Below are positions 9,457 through 40,495 of a stretch of DNA of 40,495 nucleotides, piece after piece (positions within the stretch are counted from its first letter, which is position 1; each line of letters starts with the position of its first letter). The notes under the pieces are model-generated. The model saw only the letters and a program-made list of their open reading frames with translations. It was not told where the DNA came from and ran no database searches. The stretch is from positions 1-40,495 of the forward strand of contig JBMFRX010000013.1 in NCBI GenBank assembly GCA_049967855.1. The letters are read 5' to 3'. Position numbers and translations under genes: made by a program. This DNA is from Caldisericaceae bacterium. GTDB lineage: Bacteria; Caldisericota; Caldisericia; Caldisericales; Caldisericaceae.

Positions 9457-10527
9457 ATGAAAATACTTGCGATTAACCCAGGCTCTACATCCACTAAAAT
9501 AGCGGTGTTCAATGATGAAAAACCTGTCTTTGAAAGTTCAATTAGACATTCTTCTGAAGAGCTGAAGAATTTCCAGAGAATTGTTGACCAGTACAACTTA
9601 AGGGTAGAAGTCATCCAGAAGGAACTTGAGTCTCATAGCTTCACCCTGGAGGATTTTGACGCCTTTGTAGGCCGTGGAGGACTTTTGCATCCAATTGAGT
9701 CTGGCACATACATAGTGAACGAAGCAATGATTGACGACCTGAAGGTTGCACGATACGGCGAGCATGCTTCAAACTTAGGAGCAATAATTGCCTACAGCCT
9801 TGCAGAGAAAGTTTCAAGAAACGCATACATTGTTGACCCAGTTGTTGTAGACGAAATGGGACTACTTGCAAGATTCACAGGGCTCAAAGAAATTCAGCGC
9901 AATTCAATTTGGCATGCACTTAATCAAAAAGCAATAGCCAGACAAGCAGCGCACGATATGGGAAAAAAATATGGAGATGTAAATCTTGTTGTTGTCCACC
10001 TTGGGGGAGGTATTTCTGTTGCAGCTCACAAAAAAGGCAAGACAGTTGATGTCAACAACGCCCTGAATGGAGATGGTCCTTTTGCTCCAGAAAGGTCAGG
10101 CGGACTTCCATCCATTGGTGTAGCTAACTTATGTTTCAACGGTAAGCACACATTCGATGAAATAAAGAAAATGTTTGCCGGGAAAGGAGGCCTTGTTTCT
10201 CATCTTGGCACAAACAATGCAGTAGAGGTGGAACAGATGATAGAAAAAGGTGATACCTACGCAAAATCAGTGTATGAGGCAATGGCCTACCAAATTGCAA
10301 AAGCAGTAGGAGAAATGGCAACAGTCCTTGAGGGCGATGTCGATGCAATAGTAATAACAGGTGGGCTTGCACGTTCAGACCTGCTGCTTGGCTGGATCAA
10401 AAATCGCGTTTCGTGGATAGCAAAAGTACTAACATATCCAGGAGAAGATGAAATGAAAGCACTCGCAGAAGGAGCTCTTAGGGTTCTCAGAGGAGAGGAA
10501 AAGGAAAAGACATATGAAAGAATTTGA
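9457..10527 (+). CDS. buk: Butyrate / branched-chain carboxylate kinase
   Basis: ILAINPGSTSTKIA, GRGG, HASNLG, HALNQKA, HLGGGISV, GPFAPERSG, YPGEDE. Confidence 0.95.
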   Translation: MKILAINPGSTSTKIAVFNDEKPVFESSIRHSSEELKNFQRIVDQYNLRVEVIQKELESHSFTLEDFDAFVGRGGLLHPIESGTYIVNEAMIDDLKVARYGEHASNLGAIIAYSLAEKVSRNAYIVDPVVVDEMGLLARFTGLKEIQRNSIWHALNQKAIARQAAHDMGKKYGDVNLVVVHLGGGISVAAHKKGKTVDVNNALNGDGPFAPERSGGLPSIGVANLCFNGKHTFDEIKKMFAGKGGLVSHLGTNNAVEVEQMIEKGDTYAKSVYEAMAYQIAKAVGEMATVLEGDVDAIVITGGLARSDLLLGWIKNRVSWIAKVLTYPGEDEMKALAEGALRVLRGEEKEKTYERI

Positions 10528-11465: not shown

Positions 11466-12527
11466 ATGGGAGAAAAAGTATTAATGAAGGGTTCCGAAGC
11501 CATAGCTGAAGCAGCAATCAGAGCTGGTGCAATGGCTTTTTATGGTTACCCTATTACTCCGCAGAACGAAACACCAGAATATTTCTCAAGAAGAATGCCT
11601 GAGCTAAATCGCACCTACCTTCAGGCAGAGAGTGAAGTTGCCGCAATTAATATGGTTTACGGCGCAGCATGCACTGGGACAAGAGTTATCACTACATCTT
11701 CAAGCCCTGGCATCAGTTTAATGCAAGAGGGTTTCAGTTACATTGCAAACTCTGATGTGGGATGTGTTGTCGTAAATGTAATGCGTGGTGGACCAGGATT
11801 GGGCGATATCGCCCCAGCGCAGGGAGACTACTTCCAGGCAACGAAAGGAGGCGGCCACGGAGATTATCATTCTATTGTGCTGGCACCACACACAGTGCAG
11901 GAACAGTGCGATATGATGTATGATGCATTTGACCTGGCTGACAAGTACAGAATAATGGTTGTGGTGCTGGTTGACGGACTCCTCGGACAGATGATGGAGC
12001 CTGTGGAATTCAAGGAATGGTACGATATTAAATCACGAAAGACTCCTGATTGGGCAACTGTAGGCCAGGGAGAACGCGAAAATAGAAACATAATAACGTC
12101 TCTTGAGCTTCTGCCGGAAGGACTTGAAAAGATGAACATAAAACTGCAAGGTAAATACAAGACAATCGAGGAAAACGAAGTGCGTTTTGAAGAATACAAA
12201 ATGGATGATGCAGATTATGCTATCACCGCATTTGGTACAACTGCTCGTATTGCCAAAACTTCTATAAATATGGCACGCAAAGAAGGCATCAAAGTGGGCC
12301 TGATTAGACCAATTACGCTTTATCCTTTCCCTTACAACATTGTAGAAAAAAGGGCAGAACAGGTTAAATTCTTCTTCGACGTAGAAATGAATGCAGGTCA
12401 AATGATTGAGGATGTTAAGCTTGGCATTAGTGGCAAGAAACCTGCATACTTCTATGGACGGCTTGGCGGAATGGTGCCAACGGCTGAAGAAATATTTACT
12501 GCTTTCAAAAAGCAAATTGGAGGCTAA
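11466..12527 (+). CDS. vorB: 2-oxoacid:ferredoxin oxidoreductase alpha-type subunit (VorB-like, 2-oxoisovalerate)
   Basis: GYPITPQ, QAESEVAA, SSSPGISL, RGGPGLG..QGDYFQATKGGGHGD. Confidence 0.88.
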   Translation: MGEKVLMKGSEAIAEAAIRAGAMAFYGYPITPQNETPEYFSRRMPELNRTYLQAESEVAAINMVYGAACTGTRVITTSSSPGISLMQEGFSYIANSDVGCVVVNVMRGGPGLGDIAPAQGDYFQATKGGGHGDYHSIVLAPHTVQEQCDMMYDAFDLADKYRIMVVVLVDGLLGQMMEPVEFKEWYDIKSRKTPDWATVGQGERENRNIITSLELLPEGLEKMNIKLQGKYKTIEENEVRFEEYKMDDADYAITAFGTTARIAKTSINMARKEGIKVGLIRPITLYPFPYNIVEKRAEQVKFFFDVEMNAGQMIEDVKLGISGKKPAYFYGRLGGMVPTAEEIFTAFKKQIGG

Positions 12528-12528
12528 T

Positions 12529-13275
12529 ATGAAACTAATCTATAAAGCACCCGATACAATGACAAAAACGGACACAACTTATTGCCCTGGTTGCCCACAT
12601 GGGATAGCTCATCGACTTGTTGCAGAATCACTTGAGGAAATGGGCCTTGTAAAAAAGACCGTAATAGTGTGGCCAGTGGGTTGTTCTGTGTTTGGCTATT
12701 ATTTCATTGGAACTGACGCAATTGAGGCAGCACATGGCAGAGCTTGCGCAATGGCAACTGGAATAAAGAGGGTACATCCTGAAACTTTCGTAATGACATA
12801 TCAAGGAGACGGAGACCTTGCCTCGATTGGTATTGCTGAGACAGTACACGCAGCAGCAAGAGGCGAGAAAATTACTACAATTTTCATCAACAATGGAAAT
12901 TATGGAATGACAGGCGGACAAATGGCACCAACTACACTAATAGGACAGGTTACAACTACCTCGCCTTACGGAAGAAAACCTGAGGCAAACGGTTTCCCAA
13001 TGCACGTGCCCGAGATGCTTGCAACTCTTGATGGACCAGCATATGTAGCAAGAGCAGCCCTTGACAATCCTCAACATATTATTCAGGCTAAGAAATTCAT
13101 CCAAAAAGCTTTTAAAGCACAAATGAATGGCCTTGGATTTTCAATTGTAGAACTTGTTTCTACCTGCCCAACCAACTGGAAGATGACACCCGTTGAAGCA
13201 ATGGAAAGAGTTCGCAGGGAAGTTCTACCTGTTTTTCCAATTGGGGAGTTTAAAGTAGCAAAGGGGGTTGAATAA
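12529..13275 (+). CDS. 2-oxoacid:ferredoxin oxidoreductase beta (TPP-binding) subunit
   Basis: YCPGCPHG, QGDGDLASIG, NNGNYGMTGGQ, STCPTNW. Start moved to ATG 12529 after SD GGAGG, 1 nt after the alpha-subunit stop. Confidence 0.9.
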   Translation: MKLIYKAPDTMTKTDTTYCPGCPHGIAHRLVAESLEEMGLVKKTVIVWPVGCSVFGYYFIGTDAIEAAHGRACAMATGIKRVHPETFVMTYQGDGDLASIGIAETVHAAARGEKITTIFINNGNYGMTGGQMAPTTLIGQVTTTSPYGRKPEANGFPMHVPEMLATLDGPAYVARAALDNPQHIIQAKKFIQKAFKAQMNGLGFSIVELVSTCPTNWKMTPVEAMERVRREVLPVFPIGEFKVAKGVE

Positions 13276-13276
13276 A

Positions 13277-13831
13277 ATGGAAAAAGGAGTTGTAATATCT
13301 GGATTTGGCGGACAAGGCGTAATGCTTGCAGGAGAGCTTCTTGCAGAAACGGGCAAAGAGGAAGGAAAATTTGTAACATTTCTGCCATCCTATGGTCCTG
13401 AGATGAGAGGCGGCACCGCAAACTGTCACGTTATAATTTCTGACGAAGAAATAGCATCCCCTATTATTGATAAACCAGAAGCAGCAATAGTGCTCAACTT
13501 ACCTTCCCTTGATAAATACGAACCTCAAATGAAAGAAAACGGTCTGGTCATAATAAATAAGTCAATTGTTCCTAGGGAAGTTAAACGCACTGACATAAGA
13601 GTGCTTCAGATAAAAGCACAGGAAGTTGCAAGAGACCTGGGTAACGAAAAAACAATGAACATAATGCTACTTGCAGCATACGTTGAAATAGAGAAACCAG
13701 TGACAATAGACGGCTTGAAGAAAGCCCTAAAAACATTCCTGACCGGACGAAAGGAAGCTCTCATTGCTGATAACGAGAAAGCGATTGATAAAGGTGTTGA
13801 AATAGCACGAGAATTTGTTGGAGGAAAATAA
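13277..13831 (+). CDS. 2-oxoacid:ferredoxin oxidoreductase gamma subunit
   Basis: SGFGGQGVMLAG, PSYGPEMRGGTANC. Confidence 0.9.
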   Translation: MEKGVVISGFGGQGVMLAGELLAETGKEEGKFVTFLPSYGPEMRGGTANCHVIISDEEIASPIIDKPEAAIVLNLPSLDKYEPQMKENGLVIINKSIVPREVKRTDIRVLQIKAQEVARDLGNEKTMNIMLLAAYVEIEKPVTIDGLKKALKTFLTGRKEALIADNEKAIDKGVEIAREFVGGK

Positions 13832-14924: not shown

Positions 14925-16115
14925 ATGCCTCGGATAATACACACAGGTGACCTTCATCTTGGGTTTCCAACCTACAGAACAGAAATTAATTATGATTATT
15001 TTAAACCTTTTTCATCAGTTGTAGACTACGCAATAGAGAACAGAGTAGACCTGGTTGTAATTGCAGGAGACGTATTTGACAAGAGAGACCCTCAAACAAA
15101 CATACAAAGAGGTTTTGCAAGGGAACTGCGCAGGCTCACAAGAAATAATATCCCTGTGTTCATTATCACTGGAAACCATGAGGGTTCGCCAAATCCTGAG
15201 CGTAACATTCACCTTGACGTTTACAAAGAGCTTGAGATAGAAGGAGTGACAATTGCAAAGAAGATTTCGAACTACAAAATCGCCAACCTCAACATTGTGT
15301 CTTTACCTTACCCTTTTAAGCGCAATTTGATGCATCTTGATGATTACAGAGACAAAAATGAGTATGAAATTGCCGCAGAAATGAATAGCACGATGATTGA
15401 ACTACTTAACAACGCTTACAATTCACGCGATAAAAGCTTGCCAACGATATTCGTAGCACATATACCTGTGAATGAGGGACATATCGGAGATGAGATGTAC
15501 GGAAGTTTCGATATAGACCTGCCAATTTCAATAGAAGATATAGACAGAAGTGAGGTTTCTTATGTTGCCCTGGGACACTTCCACGACAGGCAAATAATGA
15601 GTTCAAAGAGATACGTCCACCCGTTTGTTTACTGTGGCTCTCTGGACAGGATTAGTTTTGGGGAAGAAAACTCAGTAAAGGGCTTCTTCGATGTCACAAT
15701 AGATGAAACAACACATAAGGCAAACTTTGTTTTCGTAGAGAATACAAGCGCAAGAGCATTCTACACGATAAGAATTGGGAAAGACAATGATTTTGAGTCC
15801 ATTGATATTGAACGCGCCAAAAAAAGCATAACTCGCATAATACTAACAAATGAAATTTCTGACGAAGACTCTCTGAGAAAGCTAATCGATGAAGTTGGCA
15901 AAATTGCCTACGTTTTTGCTGGCTTCGAGGATAGGCGTGTTACTTTGAACAACCCAAGGAAAGGAACATTTCCTATAGCAATTTCCCCGAAGGAAGCAAT
16001 AGAAAAATATCTTGAACTCAGGAATGATGATTATGTAATGGATCATAAAGACCAGATAATAAAAAAGGCCGAAAGTATACTTGGTGAGGTTGAAAGTGGA
16101 GATAGAGAAATTTAG
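14925..16115 (+). CDS. sbcD: SbcD/Mre11-family metallophosphoesterase nuclease
   Basis: HTGDLHLG, IAGDVFD, TGNHE, AHI, YVALGHFH, YCGSLDRISFGEE. Confidence 0.85.
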   Translation: MPRIIHTGDLHLGFPTYRTEINYDYFKPFSSVVDYAIENRVDLVVIAGDVFDKRDPQTNIQRGFARELRRLTRNNIPVFIITGNHEGSPNPERNIHLDVYKELEIEGVTIAKKISNYKIANLNIVSLPYPFKRNLMHLDDYRDKNEYEIAAEMNSTMIELLNNAYNSRDKSLPTIFVAHIPVNEGHIGDEMYGSFDIDLPISIEDIDRSEVSYVALGHFHDRQIMSSKRYVHPFVYCGSLDRISFGEENSVKGFFDVTIDETTHKANFVFVENTSARAFYTIRIGKDNDFESIDIERAKKSITRIILTNEISDEDSLRKLIDEVGKIAYVFAGFEDRRVTLNNPRKGTFPIAISPKEAIEKYLELRNDDYVMDHKDQIIKKAESILGEVESGDREI

Positions 16116-19050
16116 AAAGGGAATTGCAAGCATCACTACAGCACTTATTATTGGAGGAATTATTCTAAGCACGCTTGCTGTGACACCTTTTCTTCAAAAT
16201 GACCCCAACCCATCCTCAACAGTTATAAGGGCATATCTTAAAGAAATGGCTTTGAAATACAATATCCCGTCGGTAGTCCTTATGGGAATTGCTTACACAG
16301 AATCTGGATGGAGACAATTTGATTCAAGTGGTAATCCGATAATAAACTATAATTCCCAGACTTCTTTTGACATAGGCATAATGCAAATAAATAGTGTTGG
16401 CAGAAGCGATATTGATAAGCTCAAAACAGACATATTCTACAACATTGAAGTTGGCGCAAAGATTCTTGATGGGAAATGGAAAATCACTCCAGGCATAGGA
16501 GATAGGGATAGAAATGTACTTGAAAACTGGTACTATGCAATCTGGGCATACAACGGCTTTTCGTATACCAATCACCCATTGAACACAACTGGACGACACT
16601 ATCAAGATAAGGTAATAGATAACATAGGACGTTTTATACTCGGCAACGACGGGCAGCCTCTCTGGACCCCAACAACTATAACCAAACCAGATCCTGCAAC
16701 AATTGCCAACCCTCCACAGTGGATACCTACTCCCATACCCTACCACTATGGTGACCTTTACTCCAATTCAATGTCATCAGATAACGCACGCTTGCTTGCA
16801 GGACCATCAAACAGCGTTATAAAAACAAACAGAGATACTATGATTTCGTATTTGATGCAGAATGTTGGGACAACAGTCTGGAAAAAGAACAGTGGTACAT
16901 TTGCCAAACTCACCTTAACAAAAAATAATTCAGTTCTTGAATACACGTCAGCAGTTTCAAAAGATGTTGTCCAGGGAGAATCTTACCAATTCTCTTTTGT
17001 AATTAATGCCCCCTCTTCAGGAATATATTCAACCCAAATTTCAATGTACAATGGGACGTCAAGTTTTGGATCAAATGTTACAGGCACTATCGAATTGCTC
17101 GACGTTCAAGTAAGCGATGGAGCACAGTCATTTGATAACGGATTTGACATTGGACAAAGAGTGCCGTTGAAGTTCAACTTTAGTTTGCCCAGCCCACTGA
17201 ACAGCTTTGTCAAAATAACATTACAAGATAGTTACGGCAATACCACCTATGCTTCGCTTGTAAACACTGGCACAGTACAGCAAAACATTGACACTTCTTT
17301 CGTGCCATTGTCACAGTTGCTAATCCCTGGGTCATATACACTTAAAGAAGAATTAATATTTGTTGATGGACAATTCAATATTTCAGAAAATACCCCGTTC
17401 CCATCTTATTGCGATTTTGCAAAGCCTTTTATTATCAATAATATGTCGCAAACAGGAATTATGGTTGATTCGTCTCCTGAAGGAGCACACATTCTCATAA
17501 ATGGTGCGGACAGCGGATTTATAACCCCAGCATTCGTCAAAATCCCTCCAGCGTTATACAATGTAACGCTAACAAAAGATGGCTTCCTGAACCAACAGGT
17601 TAGCACAAACCTTGTATCTAACATAGGTTTTGTGTACTCTGCGCTTCAAGTTGATAGCTCAAATTTCAGTATGTCCCTTGTTCCAAACATTGTAAATCTT
17701 GCTCCTATCAACAGCGGGGATTCCTCATTTGCAACACTATCGGCTAATTTTGATGGAACAGTCTCTTCGCCTATCACGATAACTTCTGATTCAAAATGGT
17801 TATCAGTTTATCCATACAGCTTTAATACGGCAGCTGCAATAAATGTTTTTGTTGACTCCCGATGGGTAACGAACAGTGGAATCATTCAAGGAAAGCTCAC
17901 GTTCAGCAACAATTCCAAGTCATACACCGTTGCCATTACTGCTAATATTATAAATAGCAGTGCTCAAATCTACTTTCAACCTTCTCGTGCGACTCCTCGT
18001 GAAGGAGACACTCTTGCAATCGATGTCCACATAAGCTCTCCTAAGTATCCTCTTCAGAAAACGCATTTTGATGTCTCTTATGACCCATCATTCCTCTCAT
18101 ACATTGACTTTGCTCAAGACGAACAATATGCAGTCACTTCTGACAATACCGATGGAAGCATTGATTTTGATATAGCAAACCTCAACGGCCTTACAGGCGA
18201 TAGCAAGGTCATCTCGATTAATTTCAAGGCTTTAAAGCAAATAGGCAGCGGAACTCTCATAAAAATCCCAAATGCAACAGCAATATCTATGGACAACAAA
18301 CAAGTTTCCTTGCAAACAGGAACTTCAATTATTTCGATACTTCCAAAGCTCACATTGCCTTCGCAAGTTTCAGGACTTACAGCAGAACCTCTCATCGGGA
18401 AAATCCAGTTGAATTTTTCTCCCTCACAGCAAGGCAGTTATCCTATTAAAGAATATGAAATATATCGCTCAAAAGATGATTCTCTTGACAATGCTCTTTA
18501 CATTGGTAGCACCCAAAACAATTCGTTCATTGACAATGGCCCCCTCGAGAGAGTCCCTTATTTCTACTGGATATTGGCTGTAGATTCGTATAATAATTCG
18601 TCCATTCCTTCAGCATCGGTCGAGGCAATCCCCCTTGTATTTTCAGACTCACTACCAAAAAACGTCAAACTGGTCTTCGTAATTGGAAAACCATATGTTT
18701 ACATAAACGGCATTCAGATGCCAATGGAAGTGGCTCCATTCATCAAGGCAGGACGCACTTTTGTCCCTGTAAGATATGTTGCTCAACCCTTTGGGGCACA
18801 GGTTATCTGGAACAGCAAAACACAACAGGTGACATTAATCCACAAGAAAGTCATAGAACTCTGGATAAACAACTCCAAAGCCCTGGTTGATGGAATTGAA
18901 ACCCCCATTGATGCAGGAGATCCTACTATTGTGCCATTTATTCAAAGTGGTAGGACAATGCTTCCACTGAGATTTGTGGCTGAGAATTTCGGTTGTGATG
19001 TACAGTGGGATGCAAAAACACAAACAATTACAATAGATTATCAGAACTAG
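16096..19050 (+). CDS. Large exported multidomain protein: SLT lytic transglycosylase, Ig-like, PEGA, BACON-like, cohesin, FN3, copper-amine-oxidase-N ('stalk') domain
   Basis: N-terminal TM/signal; IAYTESG, GIMQIN, AIWAYNG (SLT); VDSSPEGAHILING (PEGA); SDSKWLSV (BACON-like); EGDTLAIDV...VSYDPSFL...INFKAL (cohesin); YEIYRS...YWILAVDSYNN (FN3); GRTFVPVRYVAQPFGAQVIW and GRTMLPLRFVAENFGCDVQWD (stalk). The GTG 16096 start is approximate. Confidence 0.8.
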   Translation: MEIEKFRKGIASITTALIIGGIILSTLAVTPFLQNDPNPSSTVIRAYLKEMALKYNIPSVVLMGIAYTESGWRQFDSSGNPIINYNSQTSFDIGIMQINSVGRSDIDKLKTDIFYNIEVGAKILDGKWKITPGIGDRDRNVLENWYYAIWAYNGFSYTNHPLNTTGRHYQDKVIDNIGRFILGNDGQPLWTPTTITKPDPATIANPPQWIPTPIPYHYGDLYSNSMSSDNARLLAGPSNSVIKTNRDTMISYLMQNVGTTVWKKNSGTFAKLTLTKNNSVLEYTSAVSKDVVQGESYQFSFVINAPSSGIYSTQISMYNGTSSFGSNVTGTIELLDVQVSDGAQSFDNGFDIGQRVPLKFNFSLPSPLNSFVKITLQDSYGNTTYASLVNTGTVQQNIDTSFVPLSQLLIPGSYTLKEELIFVDGQFNISENTPFPSYCDFAKPFIINNMSQTGIMVDSSPEGAHILINGADSGFITPAFVKIPPALYNVTLTKDGFLNQQVSTNLVSNIGFVYSALQVDSSNFSMSLVPNIVNLAPINSGDSSFATLSANFDGTVSSPITITSDSKWLSVYPYSFNTAAAINVFVDSRWVTNSGIIQGKLTFSNNSKSYTVAITANIINSSAQIYFQPSRATPREGDTLAIDVHISSPKYPLQKTHFDVSYDPSFLSYIDFAQDEQYAVTSDNTDGSIDFDIANLNGLTGDSKVISINFKALKQIGSGTLIKIPNATAISMDNKQVSLQTGTSIISILPKLTLPSQVSGLTAEPLIGKIQLNFSPSQQGSYPIKEYEIYRSKDDSLDNALYIGSTQNNSFIDNGPLERVPYFYWILAVDSYNNSSIPSASVEAIPLVFSDSLPKNVKLVFVIGKPYVYINGIQMPMEVAPFIKAGRTFVPVRYVAQPFGAQVIWNSKTQQVTLIHKKVIELWINNSKALVDGIETPIDAGDPTIVPFIQSGRTMLPLRFVAENFGCDVQWDAKTQTITIDYQN

Positions 19051-23464: not shown

Positions 23465-25066
23465 ATGCATACTTTCAATAGGTCGAACAGAAAAGTAATT
23501 ATTGAAACATTATGCCTAATTGCGGTTATCGCAATAGCAATTGCGATACGTTCTTACATTATGTTTGGCACTTCGCTTATTCCAGGAATGAATGGAGGTT
23601 ACTACCTCGTCCAAACAAGAAGCATAATCGAAAAGGGGCACCTTGGCGAGCATGATATGCCACTTCTATTTTTGCTTCAAGCTGGTTTTGCACTTGTCAT
23701 TAAGTTCTTATCAAATATGAATCTTGAATCCTCTATCTTCCTGTCCGTGAAAATCTTCGACAGTGTAATTCCTGCTCTTTCTGCAATCCCTGCGTATCTT
23801 GTGACAAAATACCTTAATAAAGATAAAAACTATATTCTGCCGATTATTGCATCAGCAGCAGTTGTGACAATTTCATATGGTCCGCTCAGGATGCTTGGCG
23901 ATTTCCAAAAGAATGCTCTCGGAATGATGTGGTTCCTTTTTATGGCGTATTTCCTCATTAAAGCACTCTCGGTGAATTCAAAGCGAGACCTTATCTTATC
24001 ATTAATTTTTCTTGTTCTGTGCGGGCTAACGCACATTGGGGCATTTGGAGTTGCATTGGTTTTTATCGTGCTCGCAGCTTTAACTTCGATGGTATTTATT
24101 TCAAGAATTTCAAAGCGCAGTTTAACAGCGTTCAGCCTTACAGTAATCGGAATTTTAGCTTTACTTGCCCTGTTGAAGATTAGCTCAGACTCAATAAGGA
24201 TATCGAGATTAATCTCCTATATTGAAGCGCCGCTTTCCTTATTCCAATTCTCAAATGCAAAAGGTATGTTTAGAGCAGAAAGTATCCAGAACACAATTAT
24301 GTTTGGGCTTATATCGGTTATAATGATTTTGATGCTCGCCTGGCAGAGACGCTCGTTCAAGAAGTGGGAATATGTAGTAATTATACCTTCTGTTGTTATG
24401 ACGCTTTTTCTTATTTCTCCTTTTGTTAGCCAGGATTTCTCCACGCGTTCCCAAATAATGGCTTTTGCTCCAGGAATGATTGCCCTCGCCTTCTTTTTCA
24501 GGCACAGCAACAATTTATTCAAGTGGGCTGTTGCAACCTTAGTCGTAATTGCTTTAATTGCAGGGCTTCCTTCAATTTTGGTTACGGCGAGCACTCCATC
24601 AATATCTGCTGCCTCTTACTATGAGCTCACAACTCTTCAAAGTTCTATTACTGAGCCAAGTGAGACATTAGTAATAGCACGTCACGGACTAGAATGGTGG
24701 GTGGCCTGGGCACTGCACACAAACGTTGCTCAAGCAAACGCTGTTACATCAAATGATTGGAACGATTACAAGAATGTATTGTATATTCAGGAAATTTCTG
24801 AGGGAAATGGATTGGGCAATCAACCACTTCAATTGCAACAGCCTCCTTTTGGGAATATTGTGTCCTTTGCCCCTGACCAAAATAAAGCACCACAACCTCC
24901 AAACCAGATGCCTCAAAACAATCAACCTCAAAATGGAACATTACCGCAAGGCCCATTTTCCAATACAGTGATTGCAAGCTCTGATGAAATTACTCTCTTT
25001 AAGGGGAATTATTTTATCCTCTACAAGTTGCCTACTGCAATCACACTGCCAGGTGGCAACAAATAG
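23465..25066 (+). CDS. Polytopic membrane protein, GT-C/PMT-like topology, with Pro/Gln-rich C-terminal segment
   Basis: TM1, then loop PGMNGGYYLVQ...DMPL, 10 or more TM helices incl. GLTHIG, and a soluble C-terminal domain; resembles GT-C glycosyltransferase architecture (inference). Confidence 0.55.
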   Translation: MHTFNRSNRKVIIETLCLIAVIAIAIAIRSYIMFGTSLIPGMNGGYYLVQTRSIIEKGHLGEHDMPLLFLLQAGFALVIKFLSNMNLESSIFLSVKIFDSVIPALSAIPAYLVTKYLNKDKNYILPIIASAAVVTISYGPLRMLGDFQKNALGMMWFLFMAYFLIKALSVNSKRDLILSLIFLVLCGLTHIGAFGVALVFIVLAALTSMVFISRISKRSLTAFSLTVIGILALLALLKISSDSIRISRLISYIEAPLSLFQFSNAKGMFRAESIQNTIMFGLISVIMILMLAWQRRSFKKWEYVVIIPSVVMTLFLISPFVSQDFSTRSQIMAFAPGMIALAFFFRHSNNLFKWAVATLVVIALIAGLPSILVTASTPSISAASYYELTTLQSSITEPSETLVIARHGLEWWVAWALHTNVAQANAVTSNDWNDYKNVLYIQEISEGNGLGNQPLQLQQPPFGNIVSFAPDQNKAPQPPNQMPQNNQPQNGTLPQGPFSNTVIASSDEITLFKGNYFILYKLPTAITLPGGNK

Positions 25067-25428: not shown

Positions 25429-27288
25429 ATGCCAGAAAAGAGTGTTATTGTTATTGGAGCAGGTCTTAGCGGGCTTGCAACTGCAGCGCTTCTTTCAAAG
25501 AGAGGTTTTAAGGTTACGGTTATCGACAAGAACTACCAGCCCGGTGGCTCTTCAGGTGCATTTAAGAGAAATGGCAATATCTTTGACGTCGGTTCCGCAA
25601 TGATGTTTGGATTCGGTGAAAGTGGATTCAACCCTCACACTTTCCTTTTTAACGAAATAGAAGAATCCATAGAAGTAATTCCGCATAAAGCGATGTACAG
25701 GCTCCATTACAAGGGAGAAATAATAACCTTTTGGAACGACTTTGATAGCTTTTTTAGAGAACTTGAAAGACTTTTTCCACAGGAAATTGGAAACATAAAG
25801 AGGTTTTACTCATATATTGACGACCTCTACACGAATGTTGTGATGAAAGACCCTTCTCTTATTGCCCCATCGGAGATACCAAGAGATGAACTTTCTAAGA
25901 GATTTAGAGAAGACCCATTAACTCAACTGAGGACTTTGCCTCTTCTTTTCAAGAATTCTTCGTCAATTTTGAAAAAATTCACCAAGTCGAAAGAAGTCAT
26001 TCAGTTCTTTAACAAAATAACCTCCACCTACAGTTACACCAATATGGACGAGACCCCTGCAATTATGGCAGTAACAATGTTCATGGAAAATCACAAAAGC
26101 AGCAGCTTTTACATCTATGGCTCTACTCAGGTTTACGTAGGGAAACTTGAGAAAGCGATAGAGAAGAACGGAGGAAAGATATTATACAGCAAAGAAGTAA
26201 CATTCCTAAACATAAACGATGGGGTTGTTACCGAAGCGGTCCTTGACACTGGAGAAAAATTGGTTGCCGATTACTACGTCTTCAGCGGAACTCTTTATAA
26301 TCTTTACTCACACCTGCTTCCTGATGACAAAATACCGAAGAAGATTAAGGAGAGATTTATGAAATTTAAGAGGACCCAAGCAAGCATTGTTTTATATGCT
26401 GTCGTAGACAAGAGAGTTTTCCCTGTCGATACACAACCAATAGAGATGCTTACAGAAAACCCAGTGGATATTGATGAATCTGAGATAACTCTTTACATAA
26501 CTACCATCGATGACCCTTATTTAAACGTGGAAGGTAAACACAATGTTATCGCAATAGGACCCTCTTTCAGAAATTGGCCTTCGCCAAAAGACGATTCATA
26601 CAAAGACCCAAAACTAAAGAAAGCCTACGAAAAGATGAAAGAGGAAGAGGCGCAAAGAATAATAAATTACATTGATTCACACTTTCCTGGCTTTAAAGAT
26701 GCAGTTTCATATTACGAAATAGGGACTCCTACAACGATAGAAAGATATACTCTGAAAAATTTCGGGTCTGTCGCAGGCCCAAAACAGATGATTGGACAAG
26801 AACTTCTTAAGCGCCCTCACGCAACGACTTTCCTTGATAACCTTTTTATGTGCGGCGAATCTACCGTAATGGGGACAGGGACTCCTGCAGTAGTGATTTC
26901 GGGAATTAGTGCCGCAGACGTCATACTGAGAAAAGAACATATGGATGAATATCGTTATGCTACCAACAAGGAATTTGTAAAAAGGATTGAAAAAGTTGCA
27001 GAGCCTTATCCAAGAACAAACTTGCAGAAACTTGCAGACCTTTGTCAATGGTGCGAAAACGACACTTGTAGGACTGCTTGCCCTTATGAAGTGGATGTTA
27101 GGGGAATTCTGAGAAGACTCTATGTGGAAAACGTCTATGGTGCCAAAAAACTTCTTAAATCAGACGAGGAAGGAACGCTTACGTGCCTCAAATGTGCAAA
27201 ACAGTGTGAGTCTTCTTGTCAAAGGAAAGTTATTCTTAACGAATCCGTACCTATACAGACTATTCTAAAAAACTTGAGCGAAACGTAA
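25429..27288 (+). CDS. Phytoene desaturase/CrtH(CrtISO)-family FAD oxidoreductase fused to a C-terminal 8-Cys Fe-S domain
   Basis: VIGAGLSGL, GGSSGAFKRNGNIFDVGSAMMFGFG, GTPTTIERY, NLFMCGESTVMGTGTPAVVISG; tail CQWCx4Cx3CP...CLKCx3CESSC. Confidence 0.85.
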   Translation: MPEKSVIVIGAGLSGLATAALLSKRGFKVTVIDKNYQPGGSSGAFKRNGNIFDVGSAMMFGFGESGFNPHTFLFNEIEESIEVIPHKAMYRLHYKGEIITFWNDFDSFFRELERLFPQEIGNIKRFYSYIDDLYTNVVMKDPSLIAPSEIPRDELSKRFREDPLTQLRTLPLLFKNSSSILKKFTKSKEVIQFFNKITSTYSYTNMDETPAIMAVTMFMENHKSSSFYIYGSTQVYVGKLEKAIEKNGGKILYSKEVTFLNINDGVVTEAVLDTGEKLVADYYVFSGTLYNLYSHLLPDDKIPKKIKERFMKFKRTQASIVLYAVVDKRVFPVDTQPIEMLTENPVDIDESEITLYITTIDDPYLNVEGKHNVIAIGPSFRNWPSPKDDSYKDPKLKKAYEKMKEEEAQRIINYIDSHFPGFKDAVSYYEIGTPTTIERYTLKNFGSVAGPKQMIGQELLKRPHATTFLDNLFMCGESTVMGTGTPAVVISGISAADVILRKEHMDEYRYATNKEFVKRIEKVAEPYPRTNLQKLADLCQWCENDTCRTACPYEVDVRGILRRLYVENVYGAKKLLKSDEEGTLTCLKCAKQCESSCQRKVILNESVPIQTILKNLSET

Positions 27289-27655: not shown

Positions 27656-28774
27656 TTAAAATAGCCTTATATTCTTCCTTCTGATAGCTCTTCCTTTCCA
27701 GGTTGACTTTCCTGTTATCACCAAGAATACGGAAGCAAAACCTATGATTGAATTGACAAGAGATACCAATGGGTAATAGAGAGGCAACTCTCTTGGAAGC
27801 TTAAATTTAATTGAAGCTATAAGCCATATCAAAAGCGTTTCGAAAATCGAGGCAGCCGCAAGGAATTTCACAATAGGAGGATTTCTAAATACAAGTGCAA
27901 AAATAGGAGCAAATGATATAACAAGCATCCAAATCCAAACAAAAAGAGAAGGAATTAACCTGAGTTCAAATAACGGAAAATAGCTTTTCGATAGACCTAT
28001 AAAAGCTTCTCTGAAACTCTTATACATTCTGCAACCAACCAATTCAGAAAGGTTGAATATACCAACCCTCAAGTTGCTCTTCCTTGCAACCTTTGAGAGT
28101 TCGATATCCTCCACAATAGCCCCTTTAACACCCTTATGCCCTTGGATTTTCTCGTAAGACTTCCTCTTGAACATCATGAACTGACCGTTTGCAAACATAA
28201 AAAAGTAGAAATATCTTGACAGAAAACTTAGAAAAATAGGAAACATCGATAGGATGCTGAAATTCAGGAAAGGAACAGTAACCTTCTCTCCAAAACTTAT
28301 AGTATCTTCCCTCGGTATTCCGGTTATAAAGTCAAGATTTTTGGATTGCATTTCATCAACCATAATAGATACTGCATTGCCTGCAAAATAAGTATCTGCA
28401 TCTGCAAAAATAAGAATATCTCCAGTCGAGTGAAGATAAAGCCTGTAGCAAGCCCAGTTCTTTCCAGTCCATCCTTCTGGTGGCTCTTCTTTGCCATCAA
28501 TCATAATCAGGCGTCTGTCTTTAATAGATTTGATTATTTCAGATGTTCTGTCAGACGAATTGTCATCTAACACAACTATCTCGATATTCTCATAATCTTG
28601 TGATAGCAATGAATTTATACACTTTTCAATCGTCCCTTCTTCGTTTCTTGCAGGAACAAGAACAGAAACCCTAATTTCCTGAAAGCAGCTTCTTTTTATT
28701 GGCTTCTTGACAATAATAGCATTGAGAAGGGTGTTGAAGAATTGATACACAATGAATATAAACACTCCGTTCAT
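27656..28774 (-). CDS. Membrane-bound GT2 glycosyltransferase (CrtQ/CruC/HpnB-like)
   Basis: VLVPARNEE, LDDNSSDRT, PEGWTGKNWAC, FADAD, ANGQF, IVEDIEL, CRMY, C-terminal TMs and TWKGR. Confidence 0.88.
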   Translation of the reverse strand: MNGVFIFIVYQFFNTLLNAIIVKKPIKRSCFQEIRVSVLVPARNEEGTIEKCINSLLSQDYENIEIVVLDDNSSDRTSEIIKSIKDRRLIMIDGKEEPPEGWTGKNWACYRLYLHSTGDILIFADADTYFAGNAVSIMVDEMQSKNLDFITGIPREDTISFGEKVTVPFLNFSILSMFPIFLSFLSRYFYFFMFANGQFMMFKRKSYEKIQGHKGVKGAIVEDIELSKVARKSNLRVGIFNLSELVGCRMYKSFREAFIGLSKSYFPLFELRLIPSLFVWIWMLVISFAPIFALVFRNPPIVKFLAAASIFETLLIWLIASIKFKLPRELPLYYPLVSLVNSIIGFASVFLVITGKSTWKGRAIRRKNIRLF

Positions 28775-29350
28775 CTATAAGGTTCCCCTGTACTGCCCGA
28801 AGATTAATAAAATAGCATTTAGAATTGCAATAGTTGTGAACCTTATGTCAGCGAACCTGATGGCAACGAAAAACACAAGTAATGCTGACGAGATAACAAC
28901 AATCATCCTGTCATTAATCTTTTTCCCATAAATTCTTTTAAGCAAAGCAAAAATGACAAATGTTCCGCCCAAGAAGGTTGGCACTTCCCAGAGAGTAAGC
29001 GCACTCCAAACCCCAAATGTTGTTGTAATGCCCTTTCCTCCTTTGAACTTAAGAAAAGGAGTGAATATGTGTCCCAGTATTGGCGCAATTGAAATAACAA
29101 CGAAAGGAAAGAAATGAAGTTCGTTTCTGGTAATAATAAGATAAAGCGGCATTACTCCCTTAAGATAGTCAAGAACAAGAGAAGGCACACCTAATTTGAG
29201 GCCGTTTGCCCTAAAACTGTTTGCTGGGCCAGGATTGTTATCATTTCCAAAGTCTCTTATGTCTAAATTGAATAGGATTTTGCCAACCAAATATGAAAAT
29301 GGGATTGACCCAGCGAAAAAAGTGACAGAAAGCAAAATAAAGAATCTCAT
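28775..29350 (-). CDS. PlsY-like (acyl-phosphate-dependent acyltransferase family) protein, divergent
   Basis: GSIPFS, DIRDFG..NPG..N..R, DYLKG, LGHIF.PFLKFKGGKG; lacks C-terminal HxxN motif 3. Confidence 0.85.
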   Translation of the reverse strand: MRFFILLSVTFFAGSIPFSYLVGKILFNLDIRDFGNDNNPGPANSFRANGLKLGVPSLVLDYLKGVMPLYLIITRNELHFFPFVVISIAPILGHIFTPFLKFKGGKGITTTFGVWSALTLWEVPTFLGGTFVIFALLKRIYGKKINDRMIVVISSALLVFFVAIRFADIRFTTIAILNAILLIFGQYRGTL

Positions 29351-38837: not shown

Positions 38838-38865
38838 ATTATACGATTAAACTGCAATCCGTCAA
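38838..38865 (-). promoter_or_regulatory. Sigma70 promoter for tRNA-Leu
   Basis: Minus strand TTGACG-16 nt-TATAAT, 14 nt before the mature tRNA 5' end. Confidence 0.65.
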
Positions 38866-39494
38866 GAGCGCCTTAAGAGCTTCTTTAAATATTTCTCGTA
38901 CGAAGCTTTCCATTCTTTGCGCAAAGAGCTTAGCCCAAATAGTTCTTCAACAATTGTGAACAATAAAACAGCCAAGAAAAAATAAAGGCTATTTGAAAAT
39001 AAATAGATTAGAAATGCAAAAATCGGAAGTATCACCGCAAGCGATACAACCTGTGAGTGAGTTATTAAAAGAAGCAAAATCCAAATGGCGACTAATACTG
39101 CAAGCAAGATTAGAGCTTCGCTAAAAGGAAAAGATGCAAAAACGACAAACAGGAAAACTCCTGCTGTAGTTGCAGCCCCCTTGCCTCCTCTGAACCCAAG
39201 AAAAGGAGAGTAAACATGCCCAAGCACTGCGCAAAAGCCAATTACGGTAAGTACGGCTGGGGAGAACTTGTACAGATAATATGGCAAAACCAGCGCAACA
39301 ACTCCCTTGAGCAAGTCGCCAGCCAATGCAACAAATCCAGCCTTAATACTGACTAGATGAAAAACGTTCCCCGCACCTGGGTTCTTGCTCCCATAATCCC
39401 TTATGTCAATATGCTTTGAAACTCTACCCACTATGTAGGCAAAAGGAATAGAACCCATAAAAAATGCAAATAAGGCACTTAACGCATATTTCAT
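38862..39494 (-). CDS. Second PlsY-like acyltransferase family protein, divergent
   Basis: GSIPFA, DIRDYGSKNPGAGNV, DLLKG, LGHVYSPFLGFRGGKGAAT; no HxxN motif 3. Confidence 0.85.
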   Translation of the reverse strand: MKYALSALFAFFMGSIPFAYIVGRVSKHIDIRDYGSKNPGAGNVFHLVSIKAGFVALAGDLLKGVVALVLPYYLYKFSPAVLTVIGFCAVLGHVYSPFLGFRGGKGAATTAGVFLFVVFASFPFSEALILLAVLVAIWILLLLITHSQVVSLAVILPIFAFLIYLFSNSLYFFLAVLLFTIVEELFGLSSLRKEWKASYEKYLKKLLRRS

Positions 39495-39531: not shown

Positions 39532-40065
39532 ATGGATGAGAAAGAACTGATTAGACGTCTGAAAAGAGGAGATGCTTCCGCGCAAGAGGCATTCATAAGA
39601 AAATATCAAGACCTGATTTATGGTGCCATATTTCAAATTGCCAGGGACGCCGATCTTTCAAAAGACGTACTACAGGAGGTTTTCATAAAGGCATTAAAAA
39701 ATATTAACAAATTCAATGAGAATGCAGAAATATCGACCTGGCTTTACAGAATTGCGATGAATACCCTGAATGATGAGCTAAGGCAACTTAACAAGGTGCA
39801 TCCTCTAACGGACGATTTGCCACAAACAGTTGATTCTCCAATTTATTCATTTGATGAGAAAAAGAAAATCATATTCGAGGGAATGGGGAAACTTGACGAG
39901 AATTACAGAGAAATACTTTCACTTGTTGATATTCAGGGGCTAAGCTATGAAGAGGCTTCCACGCTGATTGGAGTGCCGATTGGCACAGTACGTTCGAGGC
40001 TTGCTAGAGCGAGAGAAAAATTGAGGGATATAATCCTTGAAAGCAACTTTTTCGATAAAATTTAA
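39532..40065 (+). CDS. ECF RNA polymerase sigma factor
   Basis: Region 2 DVLQEVFIKA...STWLYRIAMN; region 4 GLSYEEASTLIGVPIGTVRSRLARAR. Confidence 0.93.
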   Translation: MDEKELIRRLKRGDASAQEAFIRKYQDLIYGAIFQIARDADLSKDVLQEVFIKALKNINKFNENAEISTWLYRIAMNTLNDELRQLNKVHPLTDDLPQTVDSPIYSFDEKKKIIFEGMGKLDENYREILSLVDIQGLSYEEASTLIGVPIGTVRSRLARAREKLRDIILESNFFDKI

Positions 40066-40073
40066 AAAGCGAT

Positions 40074-40102
40074 GGAACTTTTTAGGTAATTTAGGAGTCT
40101 AA
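40074..40102 (+). promoter_or_regulatory. ECF (sigmaE-like) promoter upstream of the anti-sigma gene
   Basis: GGAACTT-16 nt-GTCTAA. Confidence 0.7.
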
Positions 40103-40108
40103 ATTGCG

Positions 40109-40495
40109 ATGAAAGAGAAAATTTCTGAATACCTTGATGGTAGAGTAAACAAAGAAGAGATGAATAAATTCTTCGAGGAAAATCCCGAGGAATATATTTA
40201 CTATGAACAGCTTACCAAAATGAAAAGTGTGCTTTCGGAGATGAAGACAAAAGCTCCTGATATTACAGGTAGTGTTCTTGCCTCAACAAGAAAAACAAGC
40301 CTTTCGAGAAAGCTGTCAATAGCTATCTCTATTGCTGCTGTTGTTTTGGTATCGGGCTTTCTTGTTAAGGCTTATGTTTTTAAGCCTGAGATGAACTTAC
40401 AAATGGCAGATAAATCAAATCCTCAATTAAAAAGCTTTGCATTTTCACCGCAAAAGCCTTCAATTAACATAGAAATTAGCAAATCAAGTGAGGCT
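40109..40495 (+). CDS. Membrane-anchored anti-sigma factor (partial, runs off window; not in ORF track)
   Basis: MKEKISEYLDGRVNKEEMNKFFEENPEE... then a single TM (LSIAISIAAVVLVSGFLV); open to the window end; directly follows the ECF sigma gene. Confidence 0.8.
   Translation, partial: MKEKISEYLDGRVNKEEMNKFFEENPEEYIYYEQLTKMKSVLSEMKTKAPDITGSVLASTRKTSLSRKLSIAISIAAVVLVSGFLVKAYVFKPEMNLQMADKSNPQLKSFAFSPQKPSINIEISKSSEA

Follow-up and report, generated by a model that had tools for sequence, protein, structure and literature searches.

The window analysed here is a 40,495-nucleotide stretch of a Caldisericaceae bacterium (positions 1 to 40,495 of contig JBMFRX010000013.1, GenBank assembly GCA_049967855.1), and the gene in question encodes a 619-residue protein in which a flavoenzyme domain of the carotenoid desaturase/isomerase (Crt) type continues into a C-terminal iron-sulfur (Fe-S) tail resembling that of NAD(P)H oxidoreductases of the GltD type. 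Its features are as follows.

25429..27288, forward strand: open reading frame (ORF) of 619 amino acids (aa), a CrtISO-clade FAD enzyme with an apparently GltD-derived Fe-S tail (single open frame; Pfam/NCBIfam; AlphaFold2)
25429..26937, forward strand: Crt/RetSat-type FAD domain, residues 1-503 (Pfam Amino_oxidase at 13-500; structure comparison to 4rep_A)
25558..25575, forward strand: strand 44-49, past the FAD-binding GG motif, in predicted contact with tail residues C539-W541 (modelled interface)
26116..26166, forward strand: helix 230-246 with invariant E241 and E245, the predicted surface for R562, R563 and N568 (model and conservation)
26980..27270, forward strand: helical Fe-S domain Fer4_20, residues 518-614 (Pfam; fold of the tail alone; Foldseek; superposition)
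27043..27069, forward strand: C539, C542 and C547, which together with C597 are predicted to bind the distal (exit) cluster (alignment to NfnB; conserved in 120/120)
27079..27081, forward strand: C551, ligand of the proximal cluster (equivalent to NfnB C51), gone together with C586 and C589 in one-cluster forms
27112..27132, forward strand: R562, R563 and N568, docking residues that are invariant or nearly so (alignment and model)
27184..27219, forward strand: C586-x2-C589-x3-C593-x3-C597, a rewired second motif (alignment and cysteine counts)

A homologue search scored 8000 candidates and retained 1201 proteins at E<=0.001, the best 120 of which were aligned; nearly all of these are 610-730 aa long and most carry PF14691. 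Together with the single open frame, this rules out a frameshift or chimera. A promoter scan gave no signal (14 sites vs. 11.7 expected), and no island was seen in the GC profile. AlphaFold2 models the whole protein with a pLDDT of 91.7 and a pTM of 0.93. The N-terminal domain has the MAO/PPOX-type FAD fold and is nearest to the carotenoid desaturases of the CrtI superfamily, with desaturase 4rep_A as top structural match (Z 32.4, root mean square deviation (rmsd) 3.3 Å, 463 aligned residues). It scores under every named NCBIfam cut-off: the best model, TIGR02730 carotenoid isomerase (CrtISO/CrtH; residues 6-497), reaches 246.5 bits against a cut-off of 586.9, and the CrtI phytoene desaturase model TIGR02734 reaches 137.3 bits against a subfamily cut-off of 238.1. 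The enzyme shares the FAD fold of CrtISO/CrtH, the top-scoring named family, and differs from it in bearing the Fe-S tail. Atlas yields only unnamed ‘FAD-dependent oxidoreductase’ clusters for the protein.

The initial annotation had placed an Fe-S domain with eight cysteines at the end of the enzyme, and the peptide is in frame as placed, with C539 starting at base 27043 and the stop codon ending at 27288. All eight cysteines (539, 542, 547, 551, 586, 589, 593, 597) fall within residues 539-597, and residues 1-500 contain one. The proposed Fer4_20 assignment is borne out by profile search (E 3.3e-9, 37 bits, above the cut-off of 25.8), and structure prediction gives the expected helical ferredoxin domain (pLDDT 88 for the tail folded alone). 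Fold searches with the whole protein return lists filled by the Crt domain. The best PDB matches to the tail sequence are Thermotoga maritima NfnB (4ylf_B, E 1e-4) and dihydropyrimidine dehydrogenase (DPD), and the predicted model of the lone tail superposes on NfnB, GltD and DPD (Z 12.8, 11.6 and 9.6; rmsd about 2 Å, or 1.9 Å over 88 aligned residues for 4ylf_B); Foldseek likewise pairs tail and DPD (TMq 0.65, E 2.6e-4). The Fer4_20 profile, the fold and the pattern of cysteine co-loss rule out a chance cysteine cluster or a zinc finger.

The tail thus has the helical two-cluster fold common to the GltD-like modules (GltS beta subunit, NfnB/NfnI-L, N-terminal DPD, AegA). It is C-terminal, whereas the known modules are N-terminal, and the protein ends at residue 619, without the FAD and NAD(P)H domains of GltD-like oxidoreductases, which occur only in relatives of ~965 aa. 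No chain among the PDB matches listed aligned to both the Crt half and the tail half, and a full-text literature search, with most subscription journals and supplements outside its coverage, found no prior functional description of the architecture, in line with the initial annotation.

In NfnB the distal cluster is held by C39, C42, C47 and C100, and the proximal cluster by C51, C90, C96 and E117 (PMC7596348; this and the other PMC sources are cited from excerpts). C539, C542, C547 and C597 align to the distal set. In the canonical GltD domain the ligands are seven cysteines plus Glu/Gln; here the Cys3 + Glu/Gln ligation of the proximal cluster is absent, its Glu/Gln position being Leu613. 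This position is L/F/I/M in 112/120 close homologues, while longer forms of ~800 aa keep Q or E at the eighth ligand in 109/120. The spacing claimed for the tail held only in part, as the domain is of Fer4_20 type but its second motif is a derived C-x2-C-x3-C-x3-C rather than C-x3-C-x5-C-x3-C. Since L613 stands at the E117 position and the second motif is shortened to a CxxC, C586 is the likely fourth ligand, substituting for the lost Glu/Gln. Two [4Fe-4S] clusters are predicted for the tail.

Across the 120 aligned sequences, C539, C542, C547 and C597 are invariant, while C551 is kept in 108, C586 and C589 in 105 and C593 in 118. Among the short forms (188/190 parsed), 124 combine C551 with the CxxC, 59 lack both, 5 keep only C551 and none has the CxxC by itself; the sequences are related to each other, so that no p-value is attached to this tally. 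In DPD, electrons pass from FAD to the Gln-bound cluster, then to the other cluster and out (PMC8097209). As the invariant four correspond to the distal set of NfnB, where the DPD path ends, the cluster that is always kept appears to be the exit cluster. Judged from the alignments, the distal ligands are universally retained among close homologues and the other cluster is rewired or lost.

For docking, the Crt domain and the tail were modelled as two chains (halves of one protein) with FAD and two clusters included. The score was 0.90, whereas the highest-scoring of 3 controls gave 0.00; 116/157 solved complexes and 2/215 mismatched pairs reach the mark applied, counts that hold only roughly. 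Runs had ≥98% of contacts in common, with partner pLDDT of at least 91. The modelled interface brings C539-W541, R562, R563 and N568 up against strand 44-49 and helix 230-246 and contains no ligand of the proximal cluster. In the model it is the distal-cluster face that sits on the Crt domain.

Among GTDB genomes, a scan turned up 438 stretches that encode a relative, 80 of which were kept for locus and host counts (81 loci with the window). The kept stretches come from spirochaetes, Anaerolineae, Dehalococcoidia, clostridia, Bacteroidales and others, lineages that we take to be anaerobes, and the family as a whole spreads over Spirochaetota, Chloroflexota, Bacillota, Bacteroidota and Asgard archaea. 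Cultured hosts include Acetobacterium wieringae, A. bakii, Parasporobacterium paucivorans and Anaerobium acetethylicum. The gene is patchy, since only one of 40 relatives of the window’s genome (G033) has a full-length homologue. A 75% identical copy in Athalassotoga (L077:8001-9307) is split into two ORFs by an internal deletion, and two proteins of 1009-1044 aa (P0292, P0305) have two Crt-like domains in tandem.

The family forms a size series: ~965 aa with a complete GltD module, ~800 aa without the NAD(P)H domain, ~620 aa with eight cysteines (the window protein) and ~614 aa with one cluster. The longest forms were recovered by a profile search of 1.84 billion representatives; some are named Helarchaeota or Promethearchaeota. 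They align to NfnB from 28 to 460, and eight full-length fusions align to NfnB/GltD across the entire module (P0255 residues 546-960 vs. 4ylf_B, E 1.4e-48). They have seven cysteines plus Gln/Glu/His ligation, and CLE/CVE where NADP-type enzymes have YRR. The G033 form (790 aa) has canonical ligands and a partial GltD flavin domain, and a search with it returned at least 120 proteins of 776-857 aa, one of which aligns to NfnB only as far as residue 232; in the alignment of this ~800-aa family the NAD(P)H domain is absent, but the final helix persists.

In a quick LG+G4 tree built from only the Crt domain (66 chosen rows, 497 columns, long outgroup branches), the full forms are basal, followed by a clade of ~800-aa and short forms (support 99) and a clade of 34 short forms (98); 14 one-cluster forms sit within a clade (100) that also contains 4 eight-cysteine rows. 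Forcing all GltD-bearing forms into one clade was rejected by the approximately unbiased test (p-AU 0.0026), which disfavours a growth scenario with short forms ancestral, but for a clade of all full-length forms the test gave no rejection (p-AU 0.053); both topologies were picked after inspection of the tree. This supports the view that the tail is the remnant of a complete GltD module that was cut down by stepwise loss.

GltD-like modules carry NAD(P)H electrons to a second domain via low-potential clusters, with the distal cluster as exit; those of NfnI lie at -513 and -718 mV (PMC8097209). In the ~965-aa ancestor, electrons would accordingly have run from NAD(P)H over the GltD FAD, the proximal and the distal cluster to the Crt FAD. 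When the NAD(P)H and FAD domains disappeared, an outside one-electron donor may have stepped in. Because the NAD(P)H site is lost, the short forms presumably draw on ferredoxin. Ferredoxin or flavodoxin electrons likely pass through the tail clusters to the Crt FAD, and C586 may have made the proximal cluster an all-cysteine entry point. The net outcome could be reduction of a polyene C=C bond, as in RetSat or DPD. We therefore propose, tentatively and with a little less than even confidence, that the enzyme hydrogenates a C=C bond of a carotenoid-like polyene with electrons fed by ferredoxin through the Fe-S tail into the Crt FAD, a proposal built on alignments and models.

RetSat belongs to the same superfamily as the Crt enzymes and, to our knowledge, lacks an Fe-S tail. 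The likeness to it is one of description rather than sequence comparison: RetSat depends on NAD(P)H/FADH to reduce a double bond of a polyene (PMC5577314). A precedent for enzymatic carotenoid hydrogenation in an anaerobe is the 1,2-carotenoid reductase CruI of green sulfur bacteria (PMC13704108), which, going by a reference title, is a paralogue of a bacteriochlorophyll biosynthesis enzyme and not of the CrtISO clade. We know of no Fe-S tail in CruI.

The GltD origin and thermodynamics favour electron flow into the flavin. The opposite direction, an oxygen-free desaturase or dehydrogenase exporting FAD electrons via the tail to ferredoxin or NAD+, would suit the CrtI/CrtD-like fold of the N-terminal domain, and the GltD-like DsrL runs in both directions (PMC7596348). 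The genome of the window, which is 99.99% complete, has no family match to UbiA (quinone prenyltransferase) or cytochrome bd; with neither a quinone nor an O2 acceptor found by family search, a desaturase would need another outlet for its electrons, such as the tail. CrtI, however, requires O2 or quinones for desaturation, with an optimum near 0-100 mV (PMC3382138), far above GltD-type clusters, so that desaturation would be an uphill reaction, unless rewiring has shifted the clusters to far more positive potentials, and a phytoene source is without a match in 64/80 host genomes. We consider this direction quite improbable. The initial annotation proposed a built-in relay working without O2 or quinone and left open whether it serves saturation or desaturation. 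The conserved Fe-S module, which is predicted to dock stably, and the missing UbiA and cytochrome bd matches speak for the relay, while the desaturation half of the proposal is the weaker one. Electron flow into the Crt flavin is the better-supported direction and, taken jointly over the carotenoid-hydrogenation, non-redox and non-carotenoid-substrate readings, is probable.

The progressive loss of the electron entry side could also mean that the short-form tail is no longer a wire, having become a structural cap or an O2-labile switch of lipid modification. GltD clusters have a structural role in GltS too, and some neighbouring genes are linked to light or oxidative stress (UvdE, TspO-like, heliorhodopsin; see below). 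Against this, the four distal ligands and the docking residues are invariant in 120/120 close homologues, and the eight-cysteine forms gained a CxxC that preserves four ligands for the second cluster; such conservation and gain suggest selection for a working chain, and we regard loss of the wiring function as unlikely, only slightly less so than its reversal.

If ferredoxin is the donor, a plausible source of its reduced form lies in the window itself:

11466-13831, forward strand: 2-oxoacid:ferredoxin oxidoreductase operon (Pfam), behind a butyrate/acetate-kinase-family gene at 9457-10527

Three other Fer4_20 genes are present in the genome. The phytoene synthase family SQS_PSY has no match in it (the search control was positive in 8/14), nor do the hydratases CruF and CrtC, and on these searches a de novo carotenoid pathway in this genome was rejected. 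With no match to a phytoene synthase, the host also has no evident prolycopene, the context expected for CrtISO/CrtH. CruF and CrtC are likewise without a match in 3/4 other genomes that bear the operon of glycosyltransferase and acyltransferase genes described next.

Two genes converging on the Fe-S enzyme suggest what may become of its product:

27656..28774, reverse strand: GT2 glycosyltransferase of carotenoid type (CrtQ/CruC-like), convergent neighbour (Pfam/NCBIfam; conserved partner)
28775..29350, reverse strand: PlsY-like acyltransferase, paired with the GT2 (below the PlsY cut-off; family found beside 18/80 loci of ~800-aa forms)

The PlsY-like gene matches PlsY-type records only. Two plasmid homologues of the GT2 were examined, and both lie within carotenoid clusters (25% and 33% identity). 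A further set of 80 metagenome loci was obtained via the ~800-aa alignment (46 of them >6 kb; several are near-duplicates and a few belong to other grades); the GT2 family of the window occurs at 17/80 (35-39% identity), a PlsY-like gene at 18/80 (39-49% identity over about 120 residues) and a tail-less Crt paralogue at 17/80. Since the same families recur there, the GT2 and the PlsY-like gene of the window are conserved partners.

At the 81 genome loci the recurrent neighbours are a CrtQ-type GT2 (19), CrtO (15), a gene for a TspO-like membrane protein (12; the label is an Atlas lead with the family assigned on 14-17% of members), UvdE (7), a Rieske oxygenase (4) and heliorhodopsin (4). They stand almost wholly beside one-cluster forms, with GT2 at 18/53 and CrtO at 15/53 one-cluster loci. 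CrtO, of the carotenoid-glycoside acyltransferase family, was confirmed beside the Fe-S enzyme in relatives, and by gene neighbourhood CrtO and PlsY-like genes alternate in the acyltransferase slot. The arrangement recalls CrtQ+CrtO of staphyloxanthin synthesis and CruC+CruD of Chlorobaculum and Chloroflexus, likewise a GT2 and an acyltransferase beside Crt-family genes; CruC and CruD function in carotenoid glycoside-ester tailoring (PMC13704108). Unlike those systems, the clusters of the Fe-S enzyme and most of its hosts lack the synthase. We take CruD to be PlsY-like. A salvaged polyene might thus be converted by GT2 and acyltransferase to an acyl-glycoside membrane lipid.

A tail-less Crt paralogue is adjacent at 20/81 genome loci and present elsewhere in 32/50 genomes chosen among those without an adjacent copy, compared with 2/40 relatives. 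In the window’s genome it encodes 527 aa within an operon (G000:C10:43919-46986; L002), its companions being, as we take them, an SDR and a small SnoaL-like gene, and it co-occurs strongly with the Fe-S form. Another Crt-like form carried by relatives (L086-L091) is about 690 aa long; it has a membrane domain at its N-terminus and lacks an Fe-S tail.

The same wiring could serve a substrate other than a carotenoid, such as an unsaturated fatty acid, a retinoid, phytol or an endogenous polyprenol. Phytoene synthase is unmatched in the window’s genome and in 13/15 genomes with GT2+CrtO operons (SQS_PSY was found in 2/15), and the paralogue is co-transcribed with the presumed SDR and SnoaL-like genes. 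Heliorhodopsin is present without a match to an RPE65-type cleavage enzyme, which leaves the source of its retinal unexplained, given that phytoene synthase has no match either. Yet the plasmid GT2 homologues lie in carotenoid clusters, CrtO belongs to a carotenoid-glycoside acyltransferase family, and heliorhodopsin is confined to 28/80 hosts (vs. 5/40 relatives, an unmatched comparison), which also rules out an obligate link with it. A non-carotenoid substrate is, on balance, about as improbable as electron export.

A more serious alternative is that the wire merely keeps the FAD reduced for acid-base catalysis on FADH-, either cis-trans isomerisation or addition of water, without net redox change. 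TIGR02730 carotenoid isomerase is the top NCBIfam match in all three grades scanned. CrtISO, and CrtI under anoxia, isomerise with reduced FAD (PMC3382138), and reduced FAD helps fatty-acid hydratases (PMC6013536). Water addition would supply the hydroxyl group for the GT2 where CruF and CrtC are unmatched, and one cluster would be enough for occasional reactivation, matching the one-cluster forms. On the other side, turnover reductases such as DPD and GltS are built with an entire NAD(P)H module for each catalytic domain (PMC8097209), CrtISO functions without a fused wire, and the score of the window enzyme is far below the TIGR02730 cut-off. A non-redox reaction on reduced FAD fits the relay equally, although as a specific account of the enzyme we think it possible rather than likely.

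Several observations weigh against ferredoxin-fed hydrogenation of a carotenoid-like polyene. The nearest named family is an isomerase with no net redox change, and no known hydratase in the window’s genome would supply the hydroxyl group for glycosylation. The 59/188 parsed short forms without a proximal cluster also fit a decaying or structural role, and one deep row of the tree (P0261, 821 aa) has an independently eroded GltD module without the first two distal cysteines. Among eight-cysteine loci, a GT2 adjoins the enzyme in 1/22, the window itself, and two relatives in which no Fe-S form was detected, G022 and G034, also have the PlsY-GT2 pair. SQS_PSY was found in 16/80 host genomes, most of them metagenome-assembled genomes of unknown completeness, and a UbiA-family match in 4/5 other hosts examined; for this reason neither salvage nor the absence of quinones can be general. 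The full scenario is a widespread pathway of lipid salvage, in which anaerobes without phytoene synthase import environmental carotenoids or related polyenes, have them hydrogenated by the ferredoxin-wired Crt enzyme together with its tail-less paralogue, and then anchor the products as acyl-glycosides. It must be regarded as rather unlikely as a whole, on gene content and models.

Other features of the locus and genome are noted here. Directly upstream, at 23465-25066 on the forward strand, is a 533-aa multi-pass membrane protein with a Q/P/N-rich tail, for which there is no Pfam/NCBIfam match and no counterpart in the neighbour sets. A second PlsY-like acyltransferase (38862-39494, reverse strand) is divergent from an ECF sigma/anti-sigma pair (39532-40495, forward strand). 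Heliorhodopsin is encoded at G000:C2:7013-7783, and two further PlsY-like genes (labelled by eye) are close to it on C2. A Rieske oxygenase with a VanA-type C domain (G000:C28:1018-1989) is 52% identical to ones adjoining the Fe-S enzyme in other anaerobes, and thus represents an O2-using family found in anaerobes. The window further encodes a 989-aa protein with SLT transglycosylase, PEGA, cohesin and Cu-amine-oxidase N domains (16081-19050, forward strand) and a dockerin-bearing C25 peptidase (317-2062), a cohesin-dockerin pair in a non-cellulolytic context.

The known electron partners of Crt-family flavoenzymes are O2, quinones or free reduced flavin. The protein described here is a real and conserved fusion, apparently uncharacterised, that can be read as a variant Crt-family flavoenzyme wired like DPD. 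Three points go beyond the initial annotation: only one cluster is universally kept, the tail comes from a complete NAD(P)H module, and a non-redox reaction on reduced FAD, of the CrtISO kind, fits equally. The natural truncation series is a ready test of the identity of the exit cluster and of the effect of Glu/Gln replacement on potential, and the cultured hosts make the family directly testable. If our proposal is true, the Fe-S-wired form would extend the Crt family to polyene chemistry that needs neither oxygen nor quinones. It would also account for the retention of carotenoid-tailoring genes in anaerobes that do not synthesise carotenoids; the same puzzle has been noted for an isomerase that Spironucleus acquired laterally (PMC6397501). 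If the salvage scenario is true as well, the family would comprise a ferredoxin-driven carotenoid reductase and four natural steps leading from an NAD(P)H wire down to a single cluster. It would then also be a candidate biological route for carotenoid hydrogenation in anoxic sediments.

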